A stretch of 64,000 nucleotides of DNA from a virus (lineage: Duplodnaviria > Caudoviricetes): IMG/VR virus record IMGVR_UViG_3300009091_000015, positions 1,099 through 65,098 of that record; one strand, given 5' to 3'. This document shows positions 6,270 through 48,157 of the stretch, piece after piece. The notes beneath the pieces are model-generated. The model ran no database searches, was not told where the DNA came from, and saw nothing but the letters and a program-made list of their open reading frames with translations. Made by a program: the position numbers and the translations under genes. Numbering within the stretch: position 1 is the first letter of the stretch; each line of letters begins with the position of its first letter.

Positions 6270-6995
6270 ATGATGAACGGCGACGCCAAGAAGCTCGCGC
6301 TTGCGCTGGGCTTCATGGATGACGAGACGCTCGACGCTGTCATCGAAACCCACCCAACAGTCCAGGCATACTTGAACGGCGCGATCACCTTCACTGAGGC
6401 GATGTTCATCGAGGAATACCTCAGCAACGGCTTCAGCCACAAGGCGGCGATGCAGGCCGTGGAGTCTCGGGCGCTCGCGCTCCAAGCCTACGACCGGCTC
6501 GGGCGCACCCTCATGCGCAAGCCGGTCGTGCGCAAGCTCCTGGCCCGCCGCCTGGCCGAGCAGTCCCTGACCTCGGATGAGGTGCTGGCCCAGCTGGCGA
6601 GTGTTGCGACCGCCTCGATGGAAGACTTCGTGGACATCAGGCCGGTGACGGACCCCGTCACAGAACAGGTCATGTGGATCGCCGTGCCAGACATCAGGAA
6701 GGCGAAGGAGTCAGGGAAGCTCCACCTGGCCAAAGAGCTGACCTACGACAAGGAAGGCTCGGTCAGGATCAAGCTGCGCGATGCCGACAAGGCGCTCGAC
6801 ATGCTCGCCAAACACCTCGGCCTGTTCGAGCTGGACAACATGCAGAAGATCCCGCCAGAGGTTGCGGAGCTTCTGAAGCTCTCAGCTTCCGAGAAGAAGG
6901 AACGGTTGGGCCACTACCGCGACATGATGGAATGGAGTCAGCCAAGTGGGGGAGACACTCCCGCCAGCACAGATGAGCCAGCTCCTGAAGACTGA
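6270..6995 (+). CDS. terS: Terminase small subunit
   Basis: FIEEYL...AA...LMRKPVV...DEVLAQLASVA...IKLRDADKALDMLAKHLGLF; first gene of packaging module. Confidence 0.85.
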   Translation: MMNGDAKKLALALGFMDDETLDAVIETHPTVQAYLNGAITFTEAMFIEEYLSNGFSHKAAMQAVESRALALQAYDRLGRTLMRKPVVRKLLARRLAEQSLTSDEVLAQLASVATASMEDFVDIRPVTDPVTEQVMWIAVPDIRKAKESGKLHLAKELTYDKEGSVRIKLRDADKALDMLAKHLGLFELDNMQKIPPEVAELLKLSASEKKERLGHYRDMMEWSQPSGGDTPASTDEPAPED

Positions 6996-7698
6996 AGGCG
7001 ACGACACCCTCACCCTCGTTGCCCTCCAGCAGGAGCTGGATGACGCTTTCTCAAAAGACTGCTGGCGCTGGATGTGCTCATGTGTTTTCACGGTCGATGA
7101 AGCCCAGTACGGGATGCGCGGCGCGCCCAAGATCCGGCCCTGGCCGCAGCACCTCACCTACCTCAAGGGGGTGCTCGACGTTCTCTTGAACGAGCCCCTC
7201 GTCATGATCCCCAAGTCCCGCCGCGTCATGGTGTCTTGGTTGGTCGCCGCGTATTTCGTCTGGGTAGCTCGCTATCAGGACCATGCCGCGCTGTTCTGGC
7301 AGTCGGAGACGGAGAAGAAAGCGGCGTACATCGTGGACCAGCGCTGCCACTTCATCGAGACGAACCTCAAGCCGCCAGAGTTCCGCAAGAGGATCACCAC
7401 CATCAAGACGAAGGACTCGCTGGTCGGGCAGATCAACTACCCGAACGGCAGCTACATCTGGGCGGTCCCGCAGGGTGGTGACGTGCTGCGGACCTACACG
7501 GCGACCAAGGTGATGATGGACGAGTGCGAGTTCCAGCCGCAAGCGCCGGGGGCAGTCCGGGCGCTCATGCCCATGGTTGAGAAGGGCGCACAGGCGATTC
7601 TCGTGTCATCCTCGAACGGGCCTATCGGTGTCCTTGCCGAAGTCTGCAACGGGGTTGGCTTCTCAAGTTGGTCTGACATCAGTAGGATAGCGAACTAG
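6973..7698 (+). CDS. terL: Terminase large subunit, ATPase half
   Basis: IPKSRRVMVSW Walker A variant, KVMMDECEF Walker B, LVSSSNG motif III; ends before any nuclease domain. Confidence 0.85.
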   Translation: MSQLLKTEGDDTLTLVALQQELDDAFSKDCWRWMCSCVFTVDEAQYGMRGAPKIRPWPQHLTYLKGVLDVLLNEPLVMIPKSRRVMVSWLVAAYFVWVARYQDHAALFWQSETEKKAAYIVDQRCHFIETNLKPPEFRKRITTIKTKDSLVGQINYPNGSYIWAVPQGGDVLRTYTATKVMMDECEFQPQAPGAVRALMPMVEKGAQAILVSSSNGPIGVLAEVCNGVGFSSWSDISRIAN

Positions 7699-7707
7699 GA
7701 GGCGGAC

Positions 7708-8304
7708 ATGCCGATTCCCAGCAGAGGTCAGCTCGGCCAGATGGCCAACCCACAGTTCTCAGACCCAAGACAGAACCAGAACCTCGGCGGGTTCCCGGCA
7801 GGGGCGAAGCCGAAGCCGGGCCTCATGCCCGGACAGCCCTTCCCGATGCAGCCTGGACAGCTGGATGCGCTGCGCCGGAACCTGCCTCCGCCACAGCCTG
7901 GCATGCCAGGCATGTTCCGGCCGCTTGAGCAGCTTACCCAGAGAACGCCCGGCATGGGCGGCATCGCGCAGATCCCTCCCGGCATGCCGCGCCCGCAGCC
8001 CGGCATGGGTGGGCAGTATGGCGGGGCTCAGGATGCGATCTTTGGTCGCCCACAGCCCATGCCCATGGGACCGCCGATAACGCAGTTCCCAGGGCAGCCA
8101 GGGCAGAAGCCCATGCAGCCCATGCCTGGCACGCTGACAGCCGCTGGACAGCCGCAGCCCTGGCAGCCATACGCTGGCCAGCCCCCGCAGGCAGGACCGT
8201 CAAGGGTGCCGCCTGGGATGCCGCAGGGACCGCCCCAGAAGCCCCAGCCAGGCATGCCCAATCTCGGGGCGGCGGCTCCGGGTAGACTTGGTGGCGGCAA
8301 GTAG
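7708..8304 (+). CDS. Pro/Gln/Gly/Met-rich low-complexity protein
   Basis: 198 aa, GGAGG SD, fills the gap between terminase halves exactly. Confidence 0.7.
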   Translation: MPIPSRGQLGQMANPQFSDPRQNQNLGGFPAGAKPKPGLMPGQPFPMQPGQLDALRRNLPPPQPGMPGMFRPLEQLTQRTPGMGGIAQIPPGMPRPQPGMGGQYGGAQDAIFGRPQPMPMGPPITQFPGQPGQKPMQPMPGTLTAAGQPQPWQPYAGQPPQAGPSRVPPGMPQGPPQKPQPGMPNLGAAAPGRLGGGK

Positions 8305-9204
8305 ATGCCGTCTCTCCCGCCAGTCCGCGTCCTTGAAAGCCCGAAGGGCTGGAAAATCGTCCCGGTCCACTACTCCATGGACCCGGAGAAGAACGCGGAA
8401 TGGGTCGCCAGCATGAAGCGCAGGGGGGACATCGACGACTGGGAGAAGGAGATGGAGATCAACTTCTCGTCAGTGGCCGGGGTGCGGTGCTTCGAGAGCT
8501 ACTCCATCCTGGCGAACTCGATAGACGGGGTCGAGTACGAAGAGATCCTCCCGCTGCGGCTCGCCTGCGACTTCAATGTGGACCCGATGGCCTGGCTCGT
8601 CTGTCAGATCAACAACAACAAGCTCTATGTCCTGCGTGAAATCTGGTCCTCGCCCGGCAGCGTTGTTGAGAACTGCGAGAAGTTCCTCAACGACTACGGC
8701 GGTCACTACGGCGAGGTCTTCATCTACGGCGACGCGAGCGGCAACGCGAGATCACAACGCGACCAGAGATCGAACTACGACGAGATCGCGCTGCGCCTGA
8801 TGAACCGCCCGTTCAAGCTGCGCATGCGCGTGCCGTCTCGCAACCCGACGAACGTGAACGCTGTTCGGGCCGTCAACCGGAGGTTGGTGGATCAGTGGGG
8901 CAACCCACTGATCTTCATCGACCGAGACAAGTGCAAGAACCTCCTCCTCGATCTCTCCCAGGTTGTCTGGCAGGAGGGGGCTTCTAGCGCAACTCAGTCC
9001 ATCAAGAAGACGAGGAATCGGCTTGACCCGTACTTCTTCCGTGGCCATGCCTCAGACGCGCTCTGCGCTCTCGTCCACCGCGAGTGGCCGACGCGGGCAG
9101 AGGTCGCGAAGGAAGAGGACAAGCGCGAGGAAGAAGAGAAGAAGGGGAAGGGCCGCGTGAAGAAGAAAACGCGGCCCAGGATGCGGGCCGCTTTCCCAGA
9201 TTAG
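8305..9204 (+). CDS. terL: Terminase large subunit, nuclease half
   Basis: VHYSMDP...WEKEMEINF linker; RNase H-like acidic motifs LACDFN, YGDASG, HASDAL. Confidence 0.85.
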   Translation: MPSLPPVRVLESPKGWKIVPVHYSMDPEKNAEWVASMKRRGDIDDWEKEMEINFSSVAGVRCFESYSILANSIDGVEYEEILPLRLACDFNVDPMAWLVCQINNNKLYVLREIWSSPGSVVENCEKFLNDYGGHYGEVFIYGDASGNARSQRDQRSNYDEIALRLMNRPFKLRMRVPSRNPTNVNAVRAVNRRLVDQWGNPLIFIDRDKCKNLLLDLSQVVWQEGASSATQSIKKTRNRLDPYFFRGHASDALCALVHREWPTRAEVAKEEDKREEEEKKGKGRVKKKTRPRMRAAFPD

Positions 9205-9212
9205 GAGGGGAG

Positions 9213-9632
9213 ATGCCGACATACGCACTGGCTGGAACGGTTGGGGCTCGAACGGCCCTCCAGGCCCTGCTTTCCTGGTTGCGGCTGGGAGACACAAGGG
9301 CCTATCCGTACATTGTGGCAGCTGGAGGAACAACGAGCAACGAGATCATCTGTGGGAATGACGGGCTGATGGCCCTCGACATCCCATCGAACTTCACTGG
9401 GAGCACCGTGACGATCTACGGCAAGGCGAGGTCCGACCAGGCTGCCGCGAAGCCAGTGTCTCGATGGGTCGGAGGCACGAAGACAGCGCTGGCGATAACC
9501 GGCGTCACTGTCAACGATACCCTCTGGTTCGAGACCCCCATCGCCGGGCTCTACAGCATCAAGCTGGTCGTCCCGACACAGAGCAACACGGTGTCCATCA
9601 TTCCCAGATGGGGGAGAGTGCTCTATGGCTGA
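9213..9632 (+). CDS. Small beta-rich protein, paralogue of 9625-9960
   Basis: AGGAGG SD; GTTSNEI...LWFETPI.G.YSI.LV...PRWGRV shared. Confidence 0.75.
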   Translation: MPTYALAGTVGARTALQALLSWLRLGDTRAYPYIVAAGGTTSNEIICGNDGLMALDIPSNFTGSTVTIYGKARSDQAAAKPVSRWVGGTKTALAITGVTVNDTLWFETPIAGLYSIKLVVPTQSNTVSIIPRWGRVLYG

Positions 9633-9960
9633 CCGAAGCTCAGTGTTCACGCTCCCCGGCGCAGGCACAACCAGCAACGAGATCCTGGCTGGGGACAGCG
9701 GGCTCTATGCTCTGCAGATTCCTGCCAGCGGCATGGAAGGAACGAATCTCGCCATCTACACGAGAGCGACCGTCAACTCGCCCCTGAAGGCAACCTACAT
9801 TTGGGACGGCACAACTCGCACCCAGATCAAGCTCACCAACGTGGCGGCTGATGACCTCCTCTGGTTTGAGACTCCGATTTCAGGGGTCTACAGTATCGCC
9901 CTCGTGGCTGATTCCCAGACTGGCGACTCAGTCATCACGCCGCGTTGGGGAAGGGTGTAG
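9625..9960 (+). CDS. Small beta-rich protein, paralogue of 9213-9632
   Basis: Same shared motifs. Confidence 0.75.
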   Translation: MADRSSVFTLPGAGTTSNEILAGDSGLYALQIPASGMEGTNLAIYTRATVNSPLKATYIWDGTTRTQIKLTNVAADDLLWFETPISGVYSIALVADSQTGDSVITPRWGRV

Positions 9961-9963
9961 ACC

Positions 9964-11997
9964 ATGGCAGTCGAGACAGATCCGCTGCGTGAAGAGGATC
10001 AGACCCTAGAAGTGGAGATCGAGTCGATCTCCGTTGTCGAGAAGCCACTTGAGGAGCGGCTCGACTACGAGACCGGGAAGGAACTCCACACCAAGATCCT
10101 CGACAAGTTGAAGGCGCGGCGGGACTACTCTGTCGAGCACTGTGAGGAGCGGTACGGGGAGTGGAACAGGGTCAGGAAACATCTCAAGCTCTACATCGAC
10201 CTCACCGACAAGGCCCGCCTTGGCGACAAGAGCAGCGATGAGTCAGCTCTGGAGATGCCATTCAAGCGCTCGGTCTCCATCCCGGTGTCCTACGCCAACC
10301 TCCACGTCTTGCTGACGCAGATGATGTCCATCTTCTCAGCCAGGAACCCGATGATTCAGCTGAGAGGCCGAGGCCCCGAGGATGTGTTCAAGGCGAAGAT
10401 GATGGAGACGATTCTGGCCTACGACGTGCAGCAGACCAAAGGCTTCTCCTCGCTGTACTCGATGTTCCAGGACTCCATCTCTTTCGGCACTGGAATCAAC
10501 TACGACTCGTGGGAGATCGAAGAGGGCGTCAAGTTCGACTATCAGCCGCTGATGGTCCCAGGCGTCCCGCCCGAGCTGCTCGTCGCCTACCTTGGGCCGC
10601 TCGCCTACACCCCAATCCGTACCATCGGGACACGCCGCGAGTACAACCGCTGGCGTCCGGTCGATCCGTTCAAGTTTAGGCCCGACCCCCGAGTTGCGTT
10701 CTGGAACCTCCAGGATGGTGAGTTCTGCGGCCACTCCTACGAGATCGGCTACAACACACTGAAGAAGAAGGAAGCCCCGCATGGGCCGTACTTCAACCTG
10801 AAGCATGTGCCGAAGTTCGCGAGGGGGCTCAGTAAGCGGTACGAGAAGCTCGAAGACGTGGGGATGAATCAGACGGACACCGATCTGACGACCCGCGATC
10901 AGAAGGACCGGGGCTTCTTCGAGGCCGAGACCATGGTCGTCGAGCTGATCCCGAAGGAATGGGAGATTGGGGACAGCGACTTCCCCGAGAAGTACATCTT
11001 CACCTGGATCAGCGACGAAGTCATCGTGCGTGCGCACGAGATGCCGAACGTCCACCAGCAGTTCCCCTACTCGGTGGCCGAGGTGGACCCTGACTTCCAC
11101 ACCACTTGGAGCCCAGGCATCATCGAGCTGATCGAGCCGATGCAGCGCTACATCAACTGGCTCTTCAACTCGCACATCGAGAACATCACCTCGGTCCTGA
11201 ACAACCAGTGGGTCTACTCGCCGCGCTTCATCGAACGCAACGATCTGGAGTACGGCGGACCTGGGGAGCACATCCGGCTGAAGAACGAAGCCGTCGAGAT
11301 GATGCTTTCCGGCGAGGTCCAGGACGTGCGTCAGTTCTTCTTCCAGGTGCCGATCCAGGACGTGACCGGCCCGAGCTACATGGGCGCTGTCCAGTACCTC
11401 TACCAGATGGTGCAGCTGCTCACCGGGGCAAACGACCCGATGTCAGGCATCCAGCTGCCGACCGAGCGCAGCGCCACTGAGATCCAGACCATCACCGCGA
11501 AGGCGTCCGACAGGCTGGCGATCACTGCCAAGCTCATAGATGAGAACGCGATCCAGCCCCTGATTCAGCGTAGCATCCTGAATCGCCAGCAGTTCACCCA
11601 GATGCAACAGTATTACCGCATCCTCGGGGAGTTCGCCCAGGAGTATGGGAAAGACTCCATCTTCATAGACATGGAGGACTTGCAGGGCGAGTTCGACTAC
11701 CTGGCGATCAGTGGCATCATGCCTGAAGATCCAGCGAGATCGGCCCAGGCATGGTCGCAGATCATGGCGTCAGCCGCCCAGAACCCGGCGCTCCAACAGC
11801 CAGGCCCTGATGGTAGGCAGCTAGACTTTCGCAAAGTCTTCGATACCATTGCGGAGAAGATGGGCATCACGAACATCGGTCGCTACTACATGAACGTCAA
11901 TGTTGTGCCGGATGAGGAGGCTATGGCGCAGGAGCAGGCCGGGAACTTCCTGCCGGTGCAAGCTCCTCAGAGTGCTATGCTTGGGCCGGGAGCATAG
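9964..11997 (+). CDS. Portal protein (P22/podovirus-like)
   Basis: 677 aa after terminase; VDPFKFRPDP, PGIIELIEPMQRYIN, ERSATEI motifs. Confidence 0.9.
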   Translation: MAVETDPLREEDQTLEVEIESISVVEKPLEERLDYETGKELHTKILDKLKARRDYSVEHCEERYGEWNRVRKHLKLYIDLTDKARLGDKSSDESALEMPFKRSVSIPVSYANLHVLLTQMMSIFSARNPMIQLRGRGPEDVFKAKMMETILAYDVQQTKGFSSLYSMFQDSISFGTGINYDSWEIEEGVKFDYQPLMVPGVPPELLVAYLGPLAYTPIRTIGTRREYNRWRPVDPFKFRPDPRVAFWNLQDGEFCGHSYEIGYNTLKKKEAPHGPYFNLKHVPKFARGLSKRYEKLEDVGMNQTDTDLTTRDQKDRGFFEAETMVVELIPKEWEIGDSDFPEKYIFTWISDEVIVRAHEMPNVHQQFPYSVAEVDPDFHTTWSPGIIELIEPMQRYINWLFNSHIENITSVLNNQWVYSPRFIERNDLEYGGPGEHIRLKNEAVEMMLSGEVQDVRQFFFQVPIQDVTGPSYMGAVQYLYQMVQLLTGANDPMSGIQLPTERSATEIQTITAKASDRLAITAKLIDENAIQPLIQRSILNRQQFTQMQQYYRILGEFAQEYGKDSIFIDMEDLQGEFDYLAISGIMPEDPARSAQAWSQIMASAAQNPALQQPGPDGRQLDFRKVFDTIAEKMGITNIGRYYMNVNVVPDEEAMAQEQAGNFLPVQAPQSAMLGPGA

Positions 11998-21212: not shown

Positions 21213-24200
21213 ATGGGCAGCTACAAGACAGTCGCCTACGGAGCGAACGGCGGGATCGGATACGCCAGCACCGGGACGACTGTCTCTGTACCCTACCCGA
21301 GCGGCATCGCCGCAGGGCAGATGCTCATCCTCCAGGTACTCCAGGCCACAGCGACTGACGACATCGCGACGCCTAGCGGCTGGACAAAGCTCGGATCGGA
21401 TTCAGAGGGCAGCGGGACGACCGGGGCGAATTCCGCGTGGTTCGCGAAGGTTGCGACCGGCTCCGAGAGCGGCAACCTGACGGTCAGCCGAGCGGCTGAT
21501 GTCGCCATCTACTTCTACGGCCTGATGTGGCGCACCGGCACGGGTCCGAAGCGCGACGCCACCTCGATTCAGACGACGACGCCGGTCAGCGGAACCTCGA
21601 CGAGCGCATCATCAGCTTCCATCACGCCCTCCACTGACTACTCCTACGTCGCAGTCCTCCTGAACCTCGAAGACAACACGTCCATCGCTCAGTTCACAGG
21701 CGGCAAGTACGTCGAGCAATTCGATGTCACCTCGAACCAGGGTGACGACGCCGGGTTTGCGATGGACGGGTATCAGCAAGCAGCGGCGGCGAACGAGCCA
21801 GCCCGCACGGCCACCATCGGCGGCACTGACTGCTGGATGACCATCACGATCTCCATCCCGGCAGCCTACACATGGGATCTGGCTGGGTCCATCGGAGCGA
21901 CCGCTTCCGTCACTGGGGACTTGAAGGTCAAGCGCAAGCTCGCAGGCACCATCGGGGCAACCTCCGCGCTCAGCGGCAACCTCAAGGGTTACTGGCCGCG
22001 CCTCGGGGACTGGCGATGGTACGCGGATGCGAGCCCCCCTTCCACGCCGCTTGCCGCTGAGAACACCCTCTACACGACGACCTCTCTCTCCACAATTCTG
22101 CGCCTGCGGCAGGAACTCGTCATCGAAGGCGGGAAGGGGACATCCACATCTGGGACCATCGACCTTGAATACTCCATCAACCAAACGGACTGGACCGCGC
22201 TCGGCGCGTCGGGTCACTGGAATTGGGCCAATGGCGCAGATACCGATCATTCCGGGCTCGAAGAGGCTCTTGTCGCGGATAGCCTCACAAGGTACGGCTC
22301 ATTTCATGAATCTAAGCTGGAGTACACAGACTACCCAAGTGACGGGGATGTAACCGAAGAAGACTTCTCTATCGTCCCAACCGCGAACGTCACCGCCAAC
22401 ACGACCTACTACTTCCGCATCGCCGGGTACTACGGGGCGACGCCAGTCCCCAAGGCGGCTTACGGGGCCGGAACATACCCGCAGGCGAAGTACAGCTCCG
22501 GGACGACGCACAGCCTGGCTGGGAGTGTTGCGGCACAGGCGGCGGTGACGGGGAACCTCAAGGTCATTCGAAAGCTCGCCGGTTCCATCGCGGCGCAGTC
22601 CGCTTTCGTAGCTGCCGAGGGTGGGAAGAACCTCTGGTCGAACGCGGACCTTGAGAGCGGGATCGACGACTGGAACGCAGTCCAGTCGGTCACGATCTCT
22701 CAGGATGGGACGGAGAAGTGGCAGGGCAGCTACGCCCTGCTCTGTACTCCGACGGGCAGTCGCGAGTGGCAGACGGCCAAGAGCGACAACAAGGCCGTCT
22801 CTCCATCGACCCAGTACACGCTAAGTGCCTACCTGTGGTCGCAAAACGCCGAAACCGGCTGGGTGCTGTCCGTCTACGACCAGGATGCTGGATGGCTTGG
22901 TCAGGCGCAGCCGGATACCAGCGCCGGGGCGTGGCTACGATTCCACATTCACTTCACGACCGCCAGCGACACGACGGCGATCTACTTGCACCTGTCGCGT
23001 GGGAGCACGGCCGATACCGGGCTGTGGCGAGTTGATGCGGTCCAGCTTGAACTCGGCGGGACCGAGACTGAGTGGGAGAACTACGGTTCCGGTGGTGGGC
23101 TGCAGATCATCCATGCCGTCTGGAGTCTGGCTGGCTCGGTAGCTGCGCAGGGAGCGGTAAGCGGGAATCTGAGGAAGGTCCACGCCCTCGCAGGGAGCAT
23201 CGCTGCTCAGTCTGCCGTCACTGGGAACCTGAGCGTCCATCAGCTTCGCCAGCAGTCGTTCCGGTGGCGCTACAACGATGGGACCGAAACGACTGCGACG
23301 TGGCGAGCAGCCGCCAACGCCAACATCTCCGCTCTCTACCCAACCGTACTGTACCGGCTCCGTTTCCTGATCCAGGAGTATGGTGGCGTAACAGGTCCAT
23401 CAGGAACTCAGAACTTCCGGGTTGCTTATCGCATCAACGCAGGGACGTGGACTGGGGTCACGTCCACATCCGGCGGCCCAGTCTTTTCGGTACGCCTCAG
23501 CGGTCTTGCCAGCGGCGGCAACACGACGCAGCAACTCGGTACCGGGACGTTCATCTCCAGCAACGACGGTCAACTCAGTGATTATGAGACCACGATGCAC
23601 TTCCCCGGCTCGTGGCCTGCTGGGCAAGAGACCGAGCTGGAGATCGCGTTTCTGCCGTACTACACAAATCTGACCGATGGGGACACCATCGAGTTCCGGG
23701 TCGAGCACGGGGACGGGACAGCGCTCGACAACTATGCCAACACTCCAAGCGTCACGGTTGAGAAGCCAGCTTACTCCAGGTTTACAATCCAGCATTTCCG
23801 CTTCCGCAACGATGACGGAGACGAGGATGCCGCCACCTGGAGATCTCCGCTGGACACTGGCGCGTCCTGCACGCTGAACACAAAGTACCGACTGCGGTTC
23901 GAGATCAAGGAGAACTACGGCCAGGCAGTTGGGGTTGATGAATATCCATACTTCGCCCTGCAGGGGAATGCGTTCCCTGGGGATTATTGGTTTGCAGTCG
24001 GTTCGGCCAACAACTATGTGAACTACGCCGACTCGGCATCGCTCACGAACGAGGAGGACACCACTCAGCAGCTTACCAGCGCGACGCCGTTTCTGACCGA
24101 CAACAACGGGATCAGCGAGGACGGCTGGGCTGGAATCCCCCCGACTGGCTGCGCCGCATCTTCGTTTACAGAAGTTGAGTTCGTGATCCAGCCGTCGTCC

Positions 24201-27200
24201 GTCGGCATGGTGGACGGCGGGTATGCTCGGTTATATCTGGGAACTGAAGGACAACCGGGGGATTCGTTTGGCGGGATTGTCAGACTCTACATCGGCAGCA
24301 TCGAGACCCTCCAGGGGACAATAGCGGCCCAAGTCTCCCTCGCTGGCGACCTCACCGTCGTCGAGGGCGGGACAACCTGGGATCTCGCCGGGAGCGTAGC
24401 AGCACAGGCGACGGTTGCTGGGGATGCCAAGGCTATTCGAGGACTCGCTGGTTCGATAGCGGCTCAGTCTGCCGTCACTGGCAATCTTGATCTCCTCCAC
24501 GCGACCTGGGATCTGGCCGGTAGTATCGCAGCGCAGGCAGCAGTCAGCGGCGACCTGAAGGTCACTCGCCGTCTATGGTCAACCGACTTGATTTTCCACG
24601 GTGGCCCTCCGAATCCAAGCGGATTCAAGGCGGGGGCTAACGGAAGAATCCGGTTTACATACACCCCGGAAGTGACGGCTGGGAAGCACGTCGATACGAG
24701 GTTCCGGCACGATGGGCTGTACTTCGTCCAGGTAGACACCGGCTGGGGAACCGCTGGGGTTTGGCTCAAGACCTACGACTCCGGCGGCTGGCACAACATC
24801 GACAGCGCGACCGGCGTGCTGACCGATGGTGTCCCCTGCACGATTGATGTCGTATTCTCTGGCAGCAGCGTAACAGGATACGTCGATGGCGTGGAGCAGG
24901 TCAGCGGTGTCATCACGCTCAACCTGGATCGGGACACCGCCGTTCTCTACGACGACCTCGTCACGGATGATATCGAGGCGTGGACCTACGGGGCCGGTGG
25001 TATCAAGGCTCAGGCGGCTATCAGCGGGAACCTTGAACTCGTTGAGGGGCTCTGGAGCCTGCAGGGCGCAGTCGCCGCGCAGTCCACGGTCAGTGGGGAT
25101 GCCAAGGTCACGAGGAAGCTCGCGGGGGCCGTCGCTGCTCAGTCTGCTCTCGCCGGAGACCTCGAAGTCCTCACTGGCGGGACCACCTGGGATCTCGCTG
25201 GCAGCATCTCCGCGCAGTCCGCTCTCACCGGCCAGTGCTACGTGCCTCACACCTACTACGTGGCGATGGGCGGCACGGCCGCGAACAAGGATGCAGCGAC
25301 CGGGCCTGAGACCGACCTGTCGAAGTGCATGTCGAACTACTACAACAACAACACGGCGACCTACGATCCGTTCGACACCGTGTTCGTCACTGGCTACGGC
25401 GGGACCATTGACTACCTCTCTTTCAAGGGAGGTACCTCCAGTGCGGCCCGCGTCACCTATCAAGGCAGCACGAACTACCCAGCCATCGTGGACGGGGCGC
25501 GGGTCACAACTGGGTGGACTCTCTACTCTGGGAACATCTGGCAGAAGACAGGGATCAACTGGCACCCGCAGCAGATCTGGATTGACGGTAACTACGGCGA
25601 CCGGAAAACCAGCATCGGCAACTGCGTGGATGAGTACGACTGGTACTACGACGCTGCCGCCGACACGATCTACCTCTACGCCCCAGCCGATCCCGACACC
25701 CAATACACAGACCCCGGCGTGGAAGTCCCTGAGATCTACCCACCGTCCGGCCCGGCGAGCTACGTCAACGTCAACAACATCACGGTGCGGCGTGGGACGC
25801 AGACCGGGTGCTTCGGTTGGAACGTCTCCCACATCAAATTCACAGGCTGCACCTTTGAGTGGTCCTGGGTGAACGGTGTCGGCATCCAAGGCGACGCCAG
25901 CACGCCGACAGAAGACATCGTTTTCGAGGACTGCATCGGCAGGTACAACGGATGTCAGGGGTTCGCCATCCCGTCCCTGCTGGTGCAGAGAGGAATTGTC
26001 TTCCGCCGATGCAAGGCTTACGAGAACGGTCGTTACCAGTACGCCGATCCGCGCTGGGACGACAACATGCTCTACAGCGGCGGCATCAAAATCTGGAACT
26101 ACGCAGAAGACTGCCTCATTGAGGATTGCGATGTCTACAGCAACGGTCCTTCCACGCTCGGGTCGAATTCTCTCTGGTTCGGACAGGGCATCTGGCTGGA
26201 TGGGGCAATCTCGTCCGCAGGCCACGAGAACATCGTGCGCCACAACAGGGTCTATGACAACCACGGTGTCGCGCTGTACTGCGAGCTGACGACCTACTCG
26301 ATCTGGCACAACAACCTCGCCTACGATAACGCCAAGGAGCCGGACACCGGCAACTGGTGCAACGCATCAATCCGATGCGATGCGAGAGAGAACCTGCAGT
26401 CAAGCCACAACAAGTTCTACAACAACACCCTCGTCGGCGGGCAGCACGGCATCGCGACGATGGTGACGGATACGACAGGCGAGGTGAGCTACAACGAATT
26501 CAAGAACAACATCATCATCGGGACCAACAGTGCAAAGATCAAGGCGACCAACGGTGGCGACAACATCACCTACGGCCACGACAATGTCTACAGCCACAAC
26601 TGCCTCGGAGCAGAGGCCACCGGGTTCGTCATCTGGACGACGGCCAAAGACACCTACGACGCCTGGGAAACCGCTTACGGCGGCAGCACCAACAGCATCG
26701 AAGCAGACCCGGAGTTGGAGGACGAAGAGAACGACAAGTATTGGCTCTCCGACACCTCCCCTTGCAAGAACGCTGGCACGAACCTTGGCGCTACCTATGA
26801 CGATGGCCTCCACTATCCATCTACCTGGCCAGATTCAGTCCTGACGCTCGACCAGGACGACTACGGCAGCGGATGGGAAGTCGGCGCATACGTCTATGTC
26901 GGGCAATTGGCCGGGACGGTTGCCGCCACCGCCGCCCTCGCTGGCAACCTGAAGATTGCCAGGAGTCTTGCGGGGTCCATCGCAGCGCAATCCGCCCTCT
27001 CCGGCCAGTGCTACGTCCCCAAGACGTACTACATGCGGGCGGACGGGACGGCGACAACCAAGGCTACCTCGACCGGGCCTGTGACCAGCGCCTCTGCCTG
27101 CATGGACCTCACCCATCACAACTCATACTCATTCGACCCGTTCGACACCATCGTTGTCTCTGACCGGGGCGGCGACTACCGCTGGGACGGCACCGGCTAC

Positions 27201-30200
27201 CTCTCGTCCATCATGGATATTTCATCGAGCGGTCATGCCGGAGGCGGCGAAATCCACTACGAAGCCGACGGGACACCGACGTTCCTTGGCTCCTACGACC
27301 TCACAACCGCAACCTACAAGTGGACAGCTTCCGGCAGCGGTACGAACGAATACTACTGCGAAGCGGCGGCTGGCGGAGATCCTGGTCTAGTTGAGGGCGA
27401 CTGCGTCTGGATGGACACCGTCCGCTTGACGGAGGGGACGCTCGGTTCTCTTGCCGACCACGAATGGGCCTGGGGTGACAACGATTCACTCGGGTACAGC
27501 ACGTTCTACATCCGTGACAACAGCGGCGACCCGGACACGAGCGGGGTCGCCATCGAGGCCACACAGCGAGGATGCGTCCACGCTTGGGGAATCAGCTATG
27601 TGGTAGTCGATGGTCTGACGGTCAAGTATGGGAACGGGCTGTCGTACGACGGTGGCATTCGATTCGACGAGACAAGCTACTGCACAATCCAGAACTGCGA
27701 GGCGCACCACAATCGCGGTCACGGAATCTCGCTCAAGGGCGATCACGGCGTTATTGACAACTGCCACGCTTCGTACAACGGGGCGCATAACATCGTCTCC
27801 GGTGGCAACGCGAACAACAATAACACCAACATGGAGATCAAGAATTGCATCGCGCACCACTCGTACACGATGCTATTCGTGCCACAGCCGTTCGACGGCT
27901 ACGGAATCAAGTTCCTGTACGTGGATGACAGTTCAATCCACAACAACACCATCTACGCCAACGCGGTCAATGGTATTGACCTCGATGGGGATGGTACGAA
28001 CCCTGGGTGCGGCAACAACGAAATCTATGAGAACGAAATCTACGAGAACGACATCATCGGCGTGATGATCGAGTTGAAGTCGAGCGGGAACAAGATTCAT
28101 CACAACCGAATCTACAATAACGGGAGCCTTAGCGAGTGGGGGCACTTCCAGACGTTGATTTGGGCAGCATCCATCAACAACGAGTTCTACGACAATGTCA
28201 TCTACAGGACGAGTGATTTCGCAGGAACAAATGCACTGCTTCAGATTGGCGACTACCAGGAGTCAGGGTGCACCGGGACGAAGATTTACAACAACACGAT
28301 GGACGGCGGCGGCTACTGCGCCAACGTCATCAAGGTAGATGGCGCGGCTGGTAACGCGACCGGCCTGAAGATCAAGAACAACATCCTAGTCGGATCGACC
28401 AGCACACCGATTGAAATCTACAGCACTGACTACACAGGATTCGAGTGTGACTACAACTGTTACGATCCACCAGCATCGTATGTCGTTGGCAGGAACTACA
28501 CGGGCTACACGAAGGCGACGCACTGCTCAGGGTTCAGCCAGGACTGCAACTCAATCGTTGACGATCCACTGTTCGAGGACGAAGCCAACCACGACTACTC
28601 GCTGACTGGCTCCTCTCCCTGCAAGAACGCTGGCACGAACCTTGGGTCCGATTACGACGATGGCCTCCACTACCCTTCGACCTGGCCGAGCAGCATTACA
28701 ACGCTCGACCAGGACAGCTATGGCTCCGCCTGGGAGGTCGGAGCGTATGTCTACGTTGGGCAACTCGCCGGAGCCATCGCCGCTCAATCCGCCCTGACGG
28801 GCAACCTGGAGATCAGCGAAGACCTCGTCCTCCAGGGTCAGATCGCTGCGCAGTCGAGCTTGACTGGTGCCATCAAGCTCACTCAGAAGCTCGCTGGCAC
28901 CATCGGGGCGCAGAGCAGCTTGGCTGGTGAGGCGAAGATTACGCGGCAACTGGCGGGTTCAGTTGCGGCGCAATCGGCGCTGACCGGGACGCTCAAGCTG
29001 CGGCAGAAACTGGCCGGTGCGGTTGCTGCCCAGTCGGCTCTGGCTGGCGAACTTGGTATCACGGAAGGAGTTTGGAATCTTGCCGGGACGGTCTCTCCCC
29101 TCTCCTCACTTAGTGGCGCACTGAAACTCCAGCAGCGACTCCAAGGGACCGTCTCGGCATTTTCTTCTTTCGTCGGCGACCTCCAGGTCCAGCACAAGAC
29201 ATGGGATCTGGGCGGAGAAATCTACGCCAGGACGCAACCCACTGGCGAACTCCGCGTCATCAAGCGGCTCTCCTGTGACAGGCTCGGGGCGTCCAGCTCA
29301 GTTGTCGGCAATCTGCAGCTGGTTCATGCGGTCTGGGGCCTTGCCGGAGAGGTTGGATCGAAGACCGTCGTCCAGGGTGGTATCTACGTCACGAGGAAGC
29401 TCGCCGGAGCACTCTCCGCGCAGAGTGCGCTGACTGGCAACCTCCAGTCCACAGAGGCAGCCTGGAGCCTGGCCGGGTCCGTCGCTGCGCAGTCCTCGCT
29501 TGTCGGCACCCTGGTCAACCTGAGCGACATCCCACAGCTCCTCCACCCGTACAACAGCTGGATCAACGTCTACAGCGAAAATGTCACACTGACCCAGATT
29601 CCGGCCTTGGTCGTCGCGAGCGGCTCCCACTACCACAGCGCAAGCAACGTCTATGTCCACCAGCAGCTTGTCGTTAGCAATGTCGCTCACACGCACACTG
29701 TCCAGAACGTCACATTCGTCCTGGCGAATCCGCTCTCAATTTGGGATGCTCTCCACGCCATCTCAAGCGAGGAGGTTGATCTCCTCAACTCGCTGATGAT
29801 CGCGAGCACGAGTCACTACCACTCCGCCCCTAACGTCAATATCCCATACGGCGCAGAGGCGAAGGGAAAGATGGGGCTTGGGGATGCGGTCTTCGCTCTC
29901 CAGGCCACGATGAAGCTCCCGCCATATCCAATGCGGGAGCAGGAGCTGCTCAAGTTCTGCCAGCAGCTCTACTGGCAGCTGCAGACCCACTACATCCCCC
30001 AAACCGACCGCATCGAGAACATGACGATGGTTGGTGTGGATGCGCAGCGCCCAGCCCCGGTTGGTCGGAGGCAGATGTTCTTCGCCACCGACACTTCCAC
30101 GCTCTACATCGACGTGAAGACGAGCGAGGATAGCGCTGAATGGTTTGCCATCGCAGCTGGCTCTGGCAGCAACGAAGTGCATAACGATACTGTCGATGCG

Positions 30201-30587
30201 AGCGGAAACAGGATCGTCCAGTTGACATGGCAATCCCACTGGGGTGGATTGCTCGTCAACTACACCATCAATATGTACGATCAAGTCCCCTCCCCCAATT
30301 ATCTGATCCGTGAAACCGGAGTCGTCGCGATCAGTTCCGATTCAGTCGCGGTTTGGAATGGAACTCCCGTGTGCTCAAAGCTCGGGACTCCCGCTGTCTA
30401 TAGCTATGGAGGAGCAACCGCCACTTTCACGTTCAGCGCCACGATGTCTAACTACCCAGATCAAGGAACGCTGAGTCTGTATGTGGCCTGGAGTGGAGCC
30501 AATTTCACTCCAGATCAGGACATAGGATGGATCAGATTTTCTCCAGTGTTTTTCAGTAACGACCTTGACTTCATCCAGTACGGCTGA
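21213..30587 (+). CDS. Giant modular fibre/receptor-binding protein with CBM-like and two right-handed beta-helix domains
   Basis: 3124 aa; about 28 LAGSIAAQSAVTGNL-type repeats; parallel beta-helix repeats (IYNNT, IKNNI); CBM4/9-like block near 22627-23085. Confidence 0.85.
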   Translation: MGSYKTVAYGANGGIGYASTGTTVSVPYPSGIAAGQMLILQVLQATATDDIATPSGWTKLGSDSEGSGTTGANSAWFAKVATGSESGNLTVSRAADVAIYFYGLMWRTGTGPKRDATSIQTTTPVSGTSTSASSASITPSTDYSYVAVLLNLEDNTSIAQFTGGKYVEQFDVTSNQGDDAGFAMDGYQQAAAANEPARTATIGGTDCWMTITISIPAAYTWDLAGSIGATASVTGDLKVKRKLAGTIGATSALSGNLKGYWPRLGDWRWYADASPPSTPLAAENTLYTTTSLSTILRLRQELVIEGGKGTSTSGTIDLEYSINQTDWTALGASGHWNWANGADTDHSGLEEALVADSLTRYGSFHESKLEYTDYPSDGDVTEEDFSIVPTANVTANTTYYFRIAGYYGATPVPKAAYGAGTYPQAKYSSGTTHSLAGSVAAQAAVTGNLKVIRKLAGSIAAQSAFVAAEGGKNLWSNADLESGIDDWNAVQSVTISQDGTEKWQGSYALLCTPTGSREWQTAKSDNKAVSPSTQYTLSAYLWSQNAETGWVLSVYDQDAGWLGQAQPDTSAGAWLRFHIHFTTASDTTAIYLHLSRGSTADTGLWRVDAVQLELGGTETEWENYGSGGGLQIIHAVWSLAGSVAAQGAVSGNLRKVHALAGSIAAQSAVTGNLSVHQLRQQSFRWRYNDGTETTATWRAAANANISALYPTVLYRLRFLIQEYGGVTGPSGTQNFRVAYRINAGTWTGVTSTSGGPVFSVRLSGLASGGNTTQQLGTGTFISSNDGQLSDYETTMHFPGSWPAGQETELEIAFLPYYTNLTDGDTIEFRVEHGDGTALDNYANTPSVTVEKPAYSRFTIQHFRFRNDDGDEDAATWRSPLDTGASCTLNTKYRLRFEIKENYGQAVGVDEYPYFALQGNAFPGDYWFAVGSANNYVNYADSASLTNEEDTTQQLTSATPFLTDNNGISEDGWAGIPPTGCAASSFTEVEFVIQPSSVGMVDGGYARLYLGTEGQPGDSFGGIVRLYIGSIETLQGTIAAQVSLAGDLTVVEGGTTWDLAGSVAAQATVAGDAKAIRGLAGSIAAQSAVTGNLDLLHATWDLAGSIAAQAAVSGDLKVTRRLWSTDLIFHGGPPNPSGFKAGANGRIRFTYTPEVTAGKHVDTRFRHDGLYFVQVDTGWGTAGVWLKTYDSGGWHNIDSATGVLTDGVPCTIDVVFSGSSVTGYVDGVEQVSGVITLNLDRDTAVLYDDLVTDDIEAWTYGAGGIKAQAAISGNLELVEGLWSLQGAVAAQSTVSGDAKVTRKLAGAVAAQSALAGDLEVLTGGTTWDLAGSISAQSALTGQCYVPHTYYVAMGGTAANKDAATGPETDLSKCMSNYYNNNTATYDPFDTVFVTGYGGTIDYLSFKGGTSSAARVTYQGSTNYPAIVDGARVTTGWTLYSGNIWQKTGINWHPQQIWIDGNYGDRKTSIGNCVDEYDWYYDAAADTIYLYAPADPDTQYTDPGVEVPEIYPPSGPASYVNVNNITVRRGTQTGCFGWNVSHIKFTGCTFEWSWVNGVGIQGDASTPTEDIVFEDCIGRYNGCQGFAIPSLLVQRGIVFRRCKAYENGRYQYADPRWDDNMLYSGGIKIWNYAEDCLIEDCDVYSNGPSTLGSNSLWFGQGIWLDGAISSAGHENIVRHNRVYDNHGVALYCELTTYSIWHNNLAYDNAKEPDTGNWCNASIRCDARENLQSSHNKFYNNTLVGGQHGIATMVTDTTGEVSYNEFKNNIIIGTNSAKIKATNGGDNITYGHDNVYSHNCLGAEATGFVIWTTAKDTYDAWETAYGGSTNSIEADPELEDEENDKYWLSDTSPCKNAGTNLGATYDDGLHYPSTWPDSVLTLDQDDYGSGWEVGAYVYVGQLAGTVAATAALAGNLKIARSLAGSIAAQSALSGQCYVPKTYYMRADGTATTKATSTGPVTSASACMDLTHHNSYSFDPFDTIVVSDRGGDYRWDGTGYLSSIMDISSSGHAGGGEIHYEADGTPTFLGSYDLTTATYKWTASGSGTNEYYCEAAAGGDPGLVEGDCVWMDTVRLTEGTLGSLADHEWAWGDNDSLGYSTFYIRDNSGDPDTSGVAIEATQRGCVHAWGISYVVVDGLTVKYGNGLSYDGGIRFDETSYCTIQNCEAHHNRGHGISLKGDHGVIDNCHASYNGAHNIVSGGNANNNNTNMEIKNCIAHHSYTMLFVPQPFDGYGIKFLYVDDSSIHNNTIYANAVNGIDLDGDGTNPGCGNNEIYENEIYENDIIGVMIELKSSGNKIHHNRIYNNGSLSEWGHFQTLIWAASINNEFYDNVIYRTSDFAGTNALLQIGDYQESGCTGTKIYNNTMDGGGYCANVIKVDGAAGNATGLKIKNNILVGSTSTPIEIYSTDYTGFECDYNCYDPPASYVVGRNYTGYTKATHCSGFSQDCNSIVDDPLFEDEANHDYSLTGSSPCKNAGTNLGSDYDDGLHYPSTWPSSITTLDQDSYGSAWEVGAYVYVGQLAGAIAAQSALTGNLEISEDLVLQGQIAAQSSLTGAIKLTQKLAGTIGAQSSLAGEAKITRQLAGSVAAQSALTGTLKLRQKLAGAVAAQSALAGELGITEGVWNLAGTVSPLSSLSGALKLQQRLQGTVSAFSSFVGDLQVQHKTWDLGGEIYARTQPTGELRVIKRLSCDRLGASSSVVGNLQLVHAVWGLAGEVGSKTVVQGGIYVTRKLAGALSAQSALTGNLQSTEAAWSLAGSVAAQSSLVGTLVNLSDIPQLLHPYNSWINVYSENVTLTQIPALVVASGSHYHSASNVYVHQQLVVSNVAHTHTVQNVTFVLANPLSIWDALHAISSEEVDLLNSLMIASTSHYHSAPNVNIPYGAEAKGKMGLGDAVFALQATMKLPPYPMREQELLKFCQQLYWQLQTHYIPQTDRIENMTMVGVDAQRPAPVGRRQMFFATDTSTLYIDVKTSEDSAEWFAIAAGSGSNEVHNDTVDASGNRIVQLTWQSHWGGLLVNYTINMYDQVPSPNYLIRETGVVAISSDSVAVWNGTPVCSKLGTPAVYSYGGATATFTFSATMSNYPDQGTLSLYVAWSGANFTPDQDIGWIRFSPVFFSNDLDFIQYG

Positions 30588-34113: not shown

Positions 34114-35385
34114 ATGGCCGAGGAACAGAAGAAGAAGCGCAGCAGATTCGGGGAGGAGTTCCACGAGCTGTTCCCGCAGTTGATCCTCCCGGCGGGGCTC
34201 GGCCTGCTCTCGTCGTACAACCCGATGGCGACTGCTGGAGTCAGGACCGGGCTTGAGGCGACCCAGCTGTTCAACGCCATGAGGGAGCAGCGGAAGGACA
34301 GGGCGTGGGAGGACAAGGCAAGAGAGGCCATCATCAAAGCCTCCGCTGAGCAGAGGGGGGCGCTTGAGAAGGACAGGGCAGAGTACCTCGACGAGCAGAC
34401 ACAGGAAAACATGCGGGCCACCTACCTCAACACTGGGAGAGTGCGTGAGGGCGGGGCCGTCGTCCCGACATCGAAGCCGGATGCGGCCACCGAGGCCGAG
34501 CAGATGCCCTACTTCCATGAGATGTTCGGTCCTGCCTCTGGTGATTACGGGGCCTTCGGTGCGACGCCGTCTGATCGCATGGCTTCTGAGTTCGCCTTGA
34601 ATGTTGGGCGCGGGCTTTCGCCTGAAGGACAGGCCACTCCGGGGACGCTCCCGTTCGCAACGCAGACCTCTGAGATTGGCCCCCTCATGGCTAAGCAGAT
34701 GCAGGAGGCCAGGTCTGACGTTGACACCAGCGACTACGATCAGAAGTTGTACTTCCATGACCTGCTGGCGGCGACTGCCCTGACCAGCCCAGCTCAGGCT
34801 GCGAACGTCGGCCTGTGGAGCCAGTACCAGGAACGCGGTGCAGACCTGGAGCTTGAGCGGCTCAGGACCATGTACGACCTCCAGAGCCTGAGCGACGAGG
34901 ATGCCCACCACTTGAAGGAAGCGGAGATCCTCCTGCGCAAGGGCCTGCGTGTCGCGGCGGAGCGGGAGATCGCGCTCATCAAGGCCAAGCCTATCCCTTC
35001 GTATGGTGGGGCCTGGGCTCCAACTGGTGTAATTGGGCAGGCTGGCATCCCAGAGTATCAGTACCACGCTGGGACGCCGACTCCGACTGGCGGTGGGGCG
35101 AAGAGCTATCTCAATCTCCCACTTGAGGAGATGAACCAGACCCAGCTTGGTGAGCGCATTCGCGCTCTCACGGCGCAGGCTGTTGCAACAGAGGACAAGC
35201 TCGCCGGGTCCAATGAACAAGCTGTCCAGAATGCGTGGCAGCTCGTCTGGGATGCCGAGGCAATCTACCGTCAGAAGTTTGGCAAGAAGGCTGTGGGCAG
35301 TCCACAAAATCCAAACCCCACTGGCACCACCACGACGACCACTGCTCCGCCATCGGACATCCCGCTCGCTGAACTGCTTGGGTGA
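34114..35385 (+). CDS. Putative ejection protein
   Basis: 423 aa, AGGAG SD, position. Confidence 0.6.
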   Translation: MAEEQKKKRSRFGEEFHELFPQLILPAGLGLLSSYNPMATAGVRTGLEATQLFNAMREQRKDRAWEDKAREAIIKASAEQRGALEKDRAEYLDEQTQENMRATYLNTGRVREGGAVVPTSKPDAATEAEQMPYFHEMFGPASGDYGAFGATPSDRMASEFALNVGRGLSPEGQATPGTLPFATQTSEIGPLMAKQMQEARSDVDTSDYDQKLYFHDLLAATALTSPAQAANVGLWSQYQERGADLELERLRTMYDLQSLSDEDAHHLKEAEILLRKGLRVAAEREIALIKAKPIPSYGGAWAPTGVIGQAGIPEYQYHAGTPTPTGGGAKSYLNLPLEEMNQTQLGERIRALTAQAVATEDKLAGSNEQAVQNAWQLVWDAEAIYRQKFGKKAVGSPQNPNPTGTTTTTTAPPSDIPLAELLG

Positions 35386-46945: not shown

Positions 46946-48157
46946 TCAGTCTACCACGGCCTTCTTGCTGGCAGCTTCCCACTGCTTCACCATGTCTGCC
47001 CAGTCCTTCAGGAACTTGGCCCTGTCGCTCTCGCTCTTGATGGAGCCGGGGCCGTCCATTCCGCCATGCCCGGAGGCCAGGCGCTCCATCACCCTGACCG
47101 CGAAGTCCTCCTCCTTCCCACACCGGATGGCCTGCTGGAGCAGGGCCTGCCAGAAGGCTGTGTACTGGTCTCCCTCCATCAGCGACGACGAGGCGATGCC
47201 TCCGGACTGCTCTCCGAATAGGGGGGAGTCTTCAGGCGTGCGCTTCCCGTTTGCTTTGCCGCCTGTCTCCTCGCCTGGGGCCGAGGCAGTGGTAGAGGGC
47301 GGCTGCTTGGCCGACGGTTCTGAGGGCTTCCTGGTGCGCTTTTTGAGGGTCTCTTTCGCAGACTGATTCTCATCTGAGAAGTAGTCTTCGATGCTGGACA
47401 TGCCATCCCGCAAGGAGTTGAAGATGCGGGTCAGGTCGATGAGCTGGATCTCGTCGATGGCCTCGGCCTTCTTGCGGTAGCGGGCCTCGATCATTTCCTG
47501 GCTCACCTCCAGCTCCTTGAACTTGGCGAGCATGGTCTTGATGCGATCCTTCAAGGGCTTGCCCCCGCCACCCTTGAGGGTCTCCTCGCACTGGGCGAGG
47601 GCTCCCTCCTGCACGTCGCCGGGAATCAGGGACAGGATGCACGCCCGGATGCGCCTGGCTGCCAGGTTGGCGATCATCTCGTAGATGTCACGGGGATCGG
47701 TCAGGCGCTGCATGCCGCCGCTCTTGGAGTAGCGGATGTGCTTGACGTGGAAGACCCGCTCCTGCAGGGTGTTGGTCTCCATGTCGATGGCGTATGCCTG
47801 GACCTCGGAGACCCCAGCGCCCTGCGACAACTCCCTGAATCCAAAGCGGATGTTGCCCCAGTGCCTGGCCATGGTCTCGGCCAGCCTGATGGATGCGCCA
47901 CGCACGGACGCCCCGCCCCTGCTGTAGCTGTACTCAGCCACCTGAGCCAGTGACTGCCGCTTGCAGGCTTCGACGATCTTCTGCTCTGCCCGGATCTCGT
48001 CCCTCGGGAAGCGCTTGGCCACGATGAACTGGGCCTGCGCTTCCTGCACGGCCCGGCTCTCCTCGATCCTGGTGATGGCCGCAGCCTGGCTGTCCTGCTG
48101 CACCTCCCCATCCTCGAAGATGGTGATGGGACTCGCTGTTCTGATCTCGTCGTTCAT
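46946..48157 (-). CDS. Putative single-strand annealing/recombination protein
   Basis: AKRFPRD, YSYSRGG..V.GASIRLAE, WGNI, DPRDIYE motifs; downstream of YqaJ exonuclease. Confidence 0.65.
   Translation of the reverse strand: MNDEIRTASPITIFEDGEVQQDSQAAAITRIEESRAVQEAQAQFIVAKRFPRDEIRAEQKIVEACKRQSLAQVAEYSYSRGGASVRGASIRLAETMARHWGNIRFGFRELSQGAGVSEVQAYAIDMETNTLQERVFHVKHIRYSKSGGMQRLTDPRDIYEMIANLAARRIRACILSLIPGDVQEGALAQCEETLKGGGGKPLKDRIKTMLAKFKELEVSQEMIEARYRKKAEAIDEIQLIDLTRIFNSLRDGMSSIEDYFSDENQSAKETLKKRTRKPSEPSAKQPPSTTASAPGEETGGKANGKRTPEDSPLFGEQSGGIASSSLMEGDQYTAFWQALLQQAIRCGKEEDFAVRVMERLASGHGGMDGPGSIKSESDRAKFLKDWADMVKQWEAASKKAVVD

Follow-up and report, generated by a model that had tools for sequence, protein, structure and literature searches.

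Organization of the large terminase locus

The large terminase subunit (TerL) is the textbook single-chain, two-domain packaging motor, and its gene is the usual marker of tailed phages. We analysed the terL locus in a window of 64,000 nucleotides (nt) of a tailed phage (positions 1,099 to 65,098 of the IMG/VR record IMGVR_UViG_3300009091_000015), which covers nearly the whole record of 65,098 bases, of estimated completeness about 71 %. At this locus the sequences related to TerL are distributed over two open reading frames (ORFs), referred to here as piece 1 and piece 2, with a third, middle ORF lying between them. A first-pass annotation, made by reading the letters of the window, had described an ATPase ORF that stops at a TAG (7696-7698), a P/Q/G/M-rich ORF of 198 amino acids (aa) with its own GGAGG, and a nuclease ORF starting on the base after the stop of this ORF, and the sequence agrees with each of these points. 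The features of the locus, with the small terminase subunit (TerS) gene on one side and the portal protein gene on the other, are the following.

6270..6995, plus strand: TerS gene (PF03592 Terminase_2, E 4e-14; phrog_51, E 1.6e-16), directly 5′ of piece 1 and overlapping its start
6946..7698, plus strand: TerL piece 1, 250 aa from GTG 6946, predicted RecA-like ATPase core that extends as far as the helix following motif III
ATG 6973, plus strand: second possible start codon of piece 1
TAG 7696-7698, plus strand: stop codon of piece 1, from the sequence
7698..7702, plus strand: GGAGG, which serves the middle ORF as ribosome-binding site, shares a base with the TAG of piece 1 and lies five bases 5′ of ATG 7708
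7708..8304, plus strand: middle ORF, 198 aa, P/G/Q/M-rich, ending with TAG 8302-8304
8305..9204, plus strand: TerL piece 2, whole ORF, from ATG 8305 on the base after the middle-ORF stop to TAG 9202-9204
8305..8475, plus strand: piece 2 residues 1-57, predicted last part of the ATPase domain, made of short strands and the helices of the lid (N-subdomain II), from alignment with single-chain TerLs past motif III
8476..9093, plus strand: piece 2 residues 58-263, predicted RNase H-like nuclease domain, from an AlphaFold2 model compared with solved structures
9094..9204, plus strand: piece 2 residues 264-299, basic/acidic C-terminal tail of low confidence in the AlphaFold2 model, with the conserved ending RAAFPD
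9964..11997, plus strand: portal protein gene (PF23899 SU10_portal, E 2.2e-27)

Piece 1, the middle ORF and piece 2 are all in frame 1, and 606 nt separate piece 1 from piece 2. The order TerS, TerL pieces and portal places the two pieces in the canonical position of TerL, with PF03592 on the 5′ side and PF23899 on the 3′ side. The junction of piece 1 and the middle ORF, TAGGAGG followed by ATG, is also present in the relatives L003 and L004 (labels of this form denote the loci of relatives, each an IMG/VR record), and the same three-ORF layout was observed in L003, L005 and L004, at 76-89 % identity, with middle ORFs of 186 and 279 aa. TAG was the commonest stop codon of the likely genes of the window (for example at 7696, 9202, 20173, 32408, 34102 and 44824), and since it often forms TAGGAGG, the stop codon is then part of the ribosome-binding site of the next gene.

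The contigs of two possible source runs are identical to the window along the whole stretch and along 6901-8294; those of two other studies match it without a difference in 8083-8445 and 8026-8543, spanning the second junction. Samples containing the phage are from freshwater or wetland. Both the independent assemblies and three relatives share the junctions, which confirms that the locus is no mis-assembly, a concern raised by the first-pass annotation.

Piece 1 and piece 2 correspond to one complete TerL

With Pfam at E values up to 0.1, no family was found in piece 1, the middle ORF or piece 2, and the PHROG matches of the two pieces were weak (phrog_2 at E 3.8e-4 for piece 1 and phrog_10250 at E 9.2e-6 for piece 2). 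A tblastn search against 50,697 phage records reached annotated large terminases at 24-31 % identity, in 6 records with piece 1 and in 47 with piece 2. When a profile of piece 1 and 19 relatives was compared with the PDB, gp17 of T4 and RB49 was matched at E 4.5e-10 to 6.4e-8, with the DE of the family lying on the Walker B DE of gp17 and SSSNG lying on its TTTPNG. Piece 1 carries a P-loop-like PKSRR (7210-7224), a Walker B DE (7519-7524) and the motif III SSSNGP (7606-7623), and the invariant columns of its alignment are K90, R92, D192, E193 and G225.

A canonical Walker A motif, GxxxxGK[ST], was not found in piece 1. Instead, PKSRRVMVSW (7210-7239) aligns with NLSRQLGKTT of gp17, which puts M and V at the G and K positions, and the invariant K90 stands at the start of this P-loop-like stretch. 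Fused relatives, in which TerL is a single chain, have the same deviant P-loop, with K69, R71 and W77 invariant, indicating that the deviation is a trait of the family and not a sign of decay. The KSRRxxxS-like P-loop of this TerL family presumably resembles that of lambda gpA.

For piece 2, a profile built with its relatives gave no matches among PDB sequences at E values up to 1, and a comparison of folds was therefore needed. The AlphaFold2 model of piece 2 had a mean predicted local distance difference test score (pLDDT) of 79.8. It aligned with D6E TerL over 174 residues (model residues 59-263) with Z 19.6 and a root-mean-square deviation (rmsd) of 2.3, and with the isolated nuclease domains of P22 (Z 16.1), SPP1 (Z 15.6) and P74-26 (Z 14.4) over model residues of about 58-263. 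In an alignment of 26 sequences, the acidic residues D89 (8569-8571) and D143 (8731-8733) were invariant and D251 (9055-9057) was nearly so. Together with the invariant residues of piece 1, these bear out the earlier statement that both halves keep catalytic-looking motifs. Upstream of the nuclease domain, residues 22-57 lie within the stretch of the model that aligned with T4 gp17 from its residue 314. The first 60 residues of piece 2, folded without piece 1, had pLDDT values of 52-71, while the same segment in the fused relative P0072 had values of 89-98; as the underlying alignments differ in depth, this contrast is only suggestive. At the other end, the relatives' piece 2 sequences close with the conserved endings AAFPD, GMFPD or AMFPD, and the C-terminal tail may have a role in binding the portal.

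A profile of 508 positions, built from 44 single-chain relatives, matched the record only at positions 15-221, in piece 1, and at positions 226-493, in piece 2. Since these were the sole matches, the pieces amount to one complete TerL with nothing missing or doubled and with no other copy in 65 kb. No second terL was found in the 65-kb record with the single-chain profile, and PF03237 and PF03354 gave no match either, which upholds the absence of an intact terL elsewhere in the stretch. More distant IMG/VR relatives (identity at most 36 %) are single ORFs of about 430-450 aa, and the start of piece 2 aligns with the segment just past motif III of single-chain TerLs.

We located the cut on P0072, the closest fused representative (509 aa, 45 % identity), whose model has a pLDDT of 91.4 and folds as a TerL. 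Residue 245 of piece 1 maps to residue 225 of P0072, and residue 9 of piece 2 maps to residue 227. The P0072 model aligned with the ATPase domain of T4 gp17 over 254 residues (model 1-279; Z 25.5, rmsd 3.2) and with that of P74-26 over model residues 22-277 (Z 20.9), while the solved nuclease domains begin at 276-280. The cut (225/226 in P0072) therefore falls within the ATPase domain, about 50 residues from its end. In the model the cut site is not the boundary between ATPase and nuclease but the loop that succeeds the helix following motif III, and this loop is short and variable among single-chain relatives. It follows that the 'nuclease' gene also carries the last strand or strands of the ATPase domain and the lid. 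The gene is thus in two pieces, as proposed, but these are not an ATPase gene and a nuclease gene, as piece 2 starts about 50 residues before the boundary.

The split is found in many relatives

A scan of IMG/VR with a P-loop pattern yielded 273 relatives, and the counts given here refer to the best 80. Both halves were present at 75 of the 80 loci, 72 of them split and 3 fused (L263, L270 and L285); four of the remaining five have almost no downstream DNA. The spacing between the two TerL matches ranged from 21 to 3286 nt in the 72 split loci. It was below 150 nt in 17 of them, which leaves no room for a gene between the halves, and 173-3286 nt in the rest. L010 has no middle ORF: the ATG of piece 2 lies 8 nt before the TAA of piece 1, so that start and stop overlap, and the two pieces are in different frames. 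Programmed frameshifting at the L010 junction was considered and dropped, as no slippery heptamer was seen in the L010 sequence, which was inspected without a formal scan. In L268, a distant relative, the ATPase frame continues for 179 aa past the match to TAG 1978-1980, and the nuclease frame opens at 1981.

Protein searches gave a similar picture. The 45 proteins closest to piece 2 (36-87 % identity, E 1e-183 to 1e-43) were all 190-318 aa long in a search open to 164-524 aa, and the weaker matches were mostly of 360-466 aa, many with Pfam terminase domains. An exhaustive search with piece 1 gave 1036 representatives at E values up to 1e-3. Among the best 150 of these, 82 end within 25 residues of the window's cut point, 27 are fused to a detectable nuclease part and 41 are unclassed fragments or long proteins. 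Dozens of lineages, with identities as low as about 30 %, have the same split.

A quick FastTree phylogeny of the family, unrooted and rough, was built on 219 columns and 131 rows (83 split and 48 fused), with 20 of the 150 representatives left out as short or ambiguous. Split and fused states changed 26 times by parsimony, at least 11 of these changes being forced by branches with support of at least 95, against a mean of 39 after shuffling. Because the split and fused forms interleave on the tree, the history appears to have involved either repeated fission or fusion at the loop, or recurring mobile insertion. Piece 1 and piece 2 are both under purifying selection, the comparison of the window with L003 giving 71 synonymous and 30 non-synonymous changes in piece 1 and 85 and 49, respectively, in piece 2.

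The slot between the pieces and the middle protein

The space between the pieces, referred to here as the slot, holds different genes in different relatives. Pfam was run on 27 slot ORFs of relatives, with the following results.

L215 (= L008): CarboxypepD_reg domain protein
L219: RNase_H_2 / exonuclease protein with a zinc ribbon
L232: Endonuclease_7, E 1.1e-20
L237: DNA methylase, E 6.4e-16
L239: Peptidase_M15_4
L287: Zn_ribbon_8
L236: Metallophos match at the cut-off
L265: sub-threshold GIY-YIG

No other ORF of the 27 scored above the curated cut-off of any Pfam family. Three genes, over about 2 kb, lie between the halves of L008. Since the slots hold such varied ORFs, and the halves can lie as far apart as in L008, the pieces appear to be independent genes and the slot a hot spot where accessory genes collect, of which a few resemble homing endonucleases. 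In L230 (4507-5580) and L232 (6602-7507) the slot also holds a conserved ORF, rich in Cys and His and about 300-357 aa long, that has no family; in L232 it is followed by the Endonuclease_7 gene (7419-7847). This pair within the TerL slot looks like a mobile cassette.

In the window, the slot is occupied by the middle ORF, whose product consists of 24 % P, 18 % G, 14 % Q and 8 % M. It has no Pfam or PHROG family, and a profile search found only 5 homologues. The ESM Atlas model was disordered (pLDDT 0.46), the best feature score was 0.85, which is below the naming level, and structural matches reached a TM score of 0.24 at most. The protein is carried by the window, L003/L005, L004, L006, L007, L008 and L219, with lengths of 162-279 aa, and has a conserved N-terminal motif (G7, Q11, A13-N14-P15, D19, Q22, N25, G28 and P30) and a C-terminal GK, separated by a variable, low-complexity body. 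Between the window and L003 the middle ORF differs at 24, 26 and 55 first, second and third codon positions, with 35 synonymous and 36 non-synonymous codon changes, a weaker constraint than that on the TerL pieces. From these comparisons we take the middle protein to be cargo of the slot, specific to one clade, and not part of the catalytic motor. Of the two things whose conservation the first-pass annotation had put in question, the split point is therefore kept (72 of 75 loci) while the intervening gene is not, being restricted to a clade and absent in L010.

A probable two-chain TerL and the alternative explanations

We consider it likely that the TerL of this phage is made as two polypeptides from two genes of one operon and rebuilt by fragment complementation, a reading that is well supported by the comparison with relatives. 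Piece 1 (6946-7698) would provide the RecA-like ATPase core with the deviant P-loop, Walker B and motif III, and piece 2 (8305-9204) would provide the last strand or strands of the ATPase domain and the lid, the RNase H-like nuclease and the C-terminal tail. Because the cut lies in a loop inside the ATPase domain, the chains would have to dock by fragment complementation into one ATPase domain. The two chains would thus bind each other, and the docked complex would work on the portal like an ordinary TerL and package DNA. Each gene would be translated separately, the GGAGG serving the middle ORF; since piece 2 starts on the base after the middle-ORF stop, coupling by termination and reinitiation is suggested. 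Across the phage family, the slot between the pieces would carry varied accessory genes.

Several observations weigh against this reading. L216, the fifth of the loci without both halves, has no nuclease match within 4.5 kb downstream, and several or many of the split loci are near-duplicates, so that the number of independent lineages is below 72. The interleaving of split and fused forms on the tree is a pattern also expected from mobile insertion at one site. The P-loop lacks GK[ST] and has V96 where gp17 has a lysine, and we infer ATPase activity from the invariant K90. Lastly, with the record about 71 % complete, a second terL could be encoded in the missing part.

The insert of 606 nt could be removed at the RNA level, as a group I or group II intron or another element, giving a single-chain TerL as in the ICP1 and Jug phages. 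The gene is a known target of introns (PMC10448857; PMC12880540), and the interleaved states on the 131-row tree (26 changes by parsimony, at least 11 forced) would fit a mobile insertion site. We regard such splicing as unlikely in view of the insert itself and of its counterparts. Rfam gave no match at the gathering score in the 64-kb window, and within 7400-8600 only noise (E 2.3-7.6); when folded, the RNA of 7680-8320 is not more stable than its shuffles (z -0.02); and the insert is a protein-coding ORF that is conserved and shows a bias towards changes at third codon positions. In L010 and 16 other loci the halves lie too close together to accommodate an intron, and what other lineages carry as inserts are ordinary genes, each with its own start. 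As for protein splicing, no Hint or intein family was found in the three ORFs (Pfam, E up to 0.1), and the pieces adjoin each other on the profile (positions 221 and 226), leaving no space for the halves of an intein. No homing endonuclease was found between the pieces of the window, although relatives have the Endonuclease_7 of L232 and the sub-threshold GIY-YIG of L265. With no match of this kind from Pfam, PHROG or Rfam, the window indeed has no recognisable intron, intein or homing endonuclease, as the first reading of the sequence had it. It is still less probable that TAG 7696 and TAG 8302 are read through, by suppression or reassignment, to give, at least as a minor product, a fusion of about 750 aa in which a disordered linker joins ATPase and nuclease. 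What speaks for this is that the three ORFs share one frame with only TAG between them, in the window and likewise in L003, L005 and L004, that the frame is open from 6946 to 9369 when TAG is read as Q, and that a single in-frame TAG lies between the halves of L268 (1045-2904). Yet TAG is the stop codon of 13 of the 24 likely genes of the window, the portal gene included (10 of 21 when the three ORFs discussed here are left out), and no tRNA gene, hence no suppressor tRNA, was found in the window. Moreover, the middle ORF of both L006 and L007 uses another frame and a GGGAGGGG site of its own, and its TGA overlaps the GTG start of piece 2 as GTGA. The halves of L010 are in different frames, and among the 72 split loci those with a common frame for the two halves number 21, close to the third that chance would give.

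We give the least credence to a third alternative, in which the split terL is decaying or non-functional and packaging depends on another terminase, encoded in the unsequenced 29 % or so of the genome or by a helper phage. The incompleteness of the record and the deviant Walker A would agree with decay; however, the genes occupy the canonical position between TerS and portal, both pieces are under purifying selection, the same split is kept to about 30 % identity in dozens of lineages, and the deviant P-loop is common to the fused relatives. Somewhat better placed than any of these, though still improbable in our judgement, is a role for the slot as a functional part of packaging, in which the disordered middle protein would hold or regulate the two pieces as a third terminase subunit or as a tether, its N-terminal motif and GK docking on the TerL chains or the portal. 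In its clade the middle gene is always directly 3′ of piece 1, the protein keeps its N-terminal motif of about 25 residues and the C-terminal GK across 30-78 % identity, and piece 1 of the same clade ends with an eight-residue extension, SDISRIAN or a variant of it. Against such a role, L010 and most of the family lack the middle protein and have either an empty slot or unrelated genes in it; other genes lie between the middle gene and piece 2 in L008 and L219; and the constraint on the middle protein (35 synonymous against 36 non-synonymous changes) is weaker than on the TerL pieces. A complex prediction of three chains, pieces 1 and 2 with the middle protein as partner, scored 0.00 twice in runs without controls, a result that speaks neither for nor against such a role. 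The disordered third component of the first-pass annotation is thus unsupported, as L010 lacks the middle gene and other lineages have unrelated genes in its place or beside it.

Other genes of the window

Between piece 2 and the portal gene are two small paralogous ORFs, 9213-9632 (139 aa) and 9625-9960 (111 aa), without a Pfam or PHROG family. Both contain TTSNEI..G.D.L.AL.IP and end in LWFETPI.G.YSI.L......TPRWGRV, and single copies are present in L006 (4767-5132) and L007 (5868-6233). The structural region includes two giant ORFs, 21213-30587 (3124 aa) and 35382-44309 (2975 aa), with no PHROG match at E values up to 1e-4. On the minus strand, the genes at 46949-48157 and 48394-49359 are neighbours that encode a protein with a strong match to phrog_3657 (E 9e-100) and a RecE-like/Cas4-domain exonuclease (phrog_434, E 4.2e-50), and they probably form a recombination module.

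Significance and comparison with known systems

In current models of packaging, the lid is central to the generation of force, as described for P74-26 and T4. A large and stable group of phages with the lid and the catalytic core on different polypeptides would be a natural test of these models. A break inside the ATPase domain is of more interest than one between the domains. Pfam terminase models detect neither TerL piece, and public sources label both proteins 'hypothetical'; because of this, such phages will be scored as lacking TerL or as having a truncated TerL, and trees and completeness estimates based on TerL will mishandle them. The slot is, in addition, worth examining for new phage functions. 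As a speculation, splitting TerL could let phages escape host sensors of the intact protein; an Avs3-terminase complex was among the structural matches found.

When compared with the single-chain TerLs of solved structure from T4 (gp17), P74-26 (Thermus), D6E (Geobacillus) and HK97, the window and P0072 have the same folds in the same order. The window differs from the solved single-chain TerLs in having two polypeptides, a cut inside the ATPase domain and a P-loop without GK[ST].

In the literature, searched as full text, we found passing mentions but no characterization of a natural two-gene TerL. In the cultured Parabacteroides phage PDS1, TerL was annotated as two coding sequences, for which the authors suspected another codon table or an assembly problem (PMC10773633). 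In its record (MN929097) the pieces are of 337 and 148 aa, 92 nt apart, and given these sizes the break is at another place than the cut in the window. Another report (PMC11273794) mentions tandem 'large terminase homologs' in two Xanthomonas jumbo phages.

Three published kinds of interrupted gene can be compared with the window. The terL of the Vibrio phage ICP1, whose splicing was demonstrated by RNA sequencing and reverse transcription PCR (PMC10448857), and that of the Jug phages, cut by group I introns (PMC12880540), likewise consist of two or more ORFs. These are joined by RNA splicing, whereas the window has no detectable ribozyme and some relatives have no spacer at all. The 'fractured genes' of Dassa et al. 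(2009; PMC2677866) are metagenomic genes in two pieces around another gene, a free-standing endonuclease, and resemble the window in this arrangement. They need split-intein halves at the break, while in the window the pieces abut (221/226) and no intein family was found.

The nearest published mechanism is that of the ribonucleotide reductase of Aeromonas phage Aeh1, encoded in pieces as nrdA-a/mobE/nrdA-b (Crona et al., 2011; PMC3045599). There too, an essential enzyme gene is cut in two by inserted DNA. The chains work as separate polypeptides, without RNA or protein splicing, and the assembly of the holoenzyme by terminal tails was demonstrated biochemically. The insert in Aeh1 is a homing endonuclease gene, while that in the window encodes a disordered protein without a nuclease family, and for the window we infer the assembly of the chains. 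A feature like that of Aeh1 is nevertheless present among the relatives, in the Endonuclease_7 gene that occupies the slot of L232 (E 1.1e-20).

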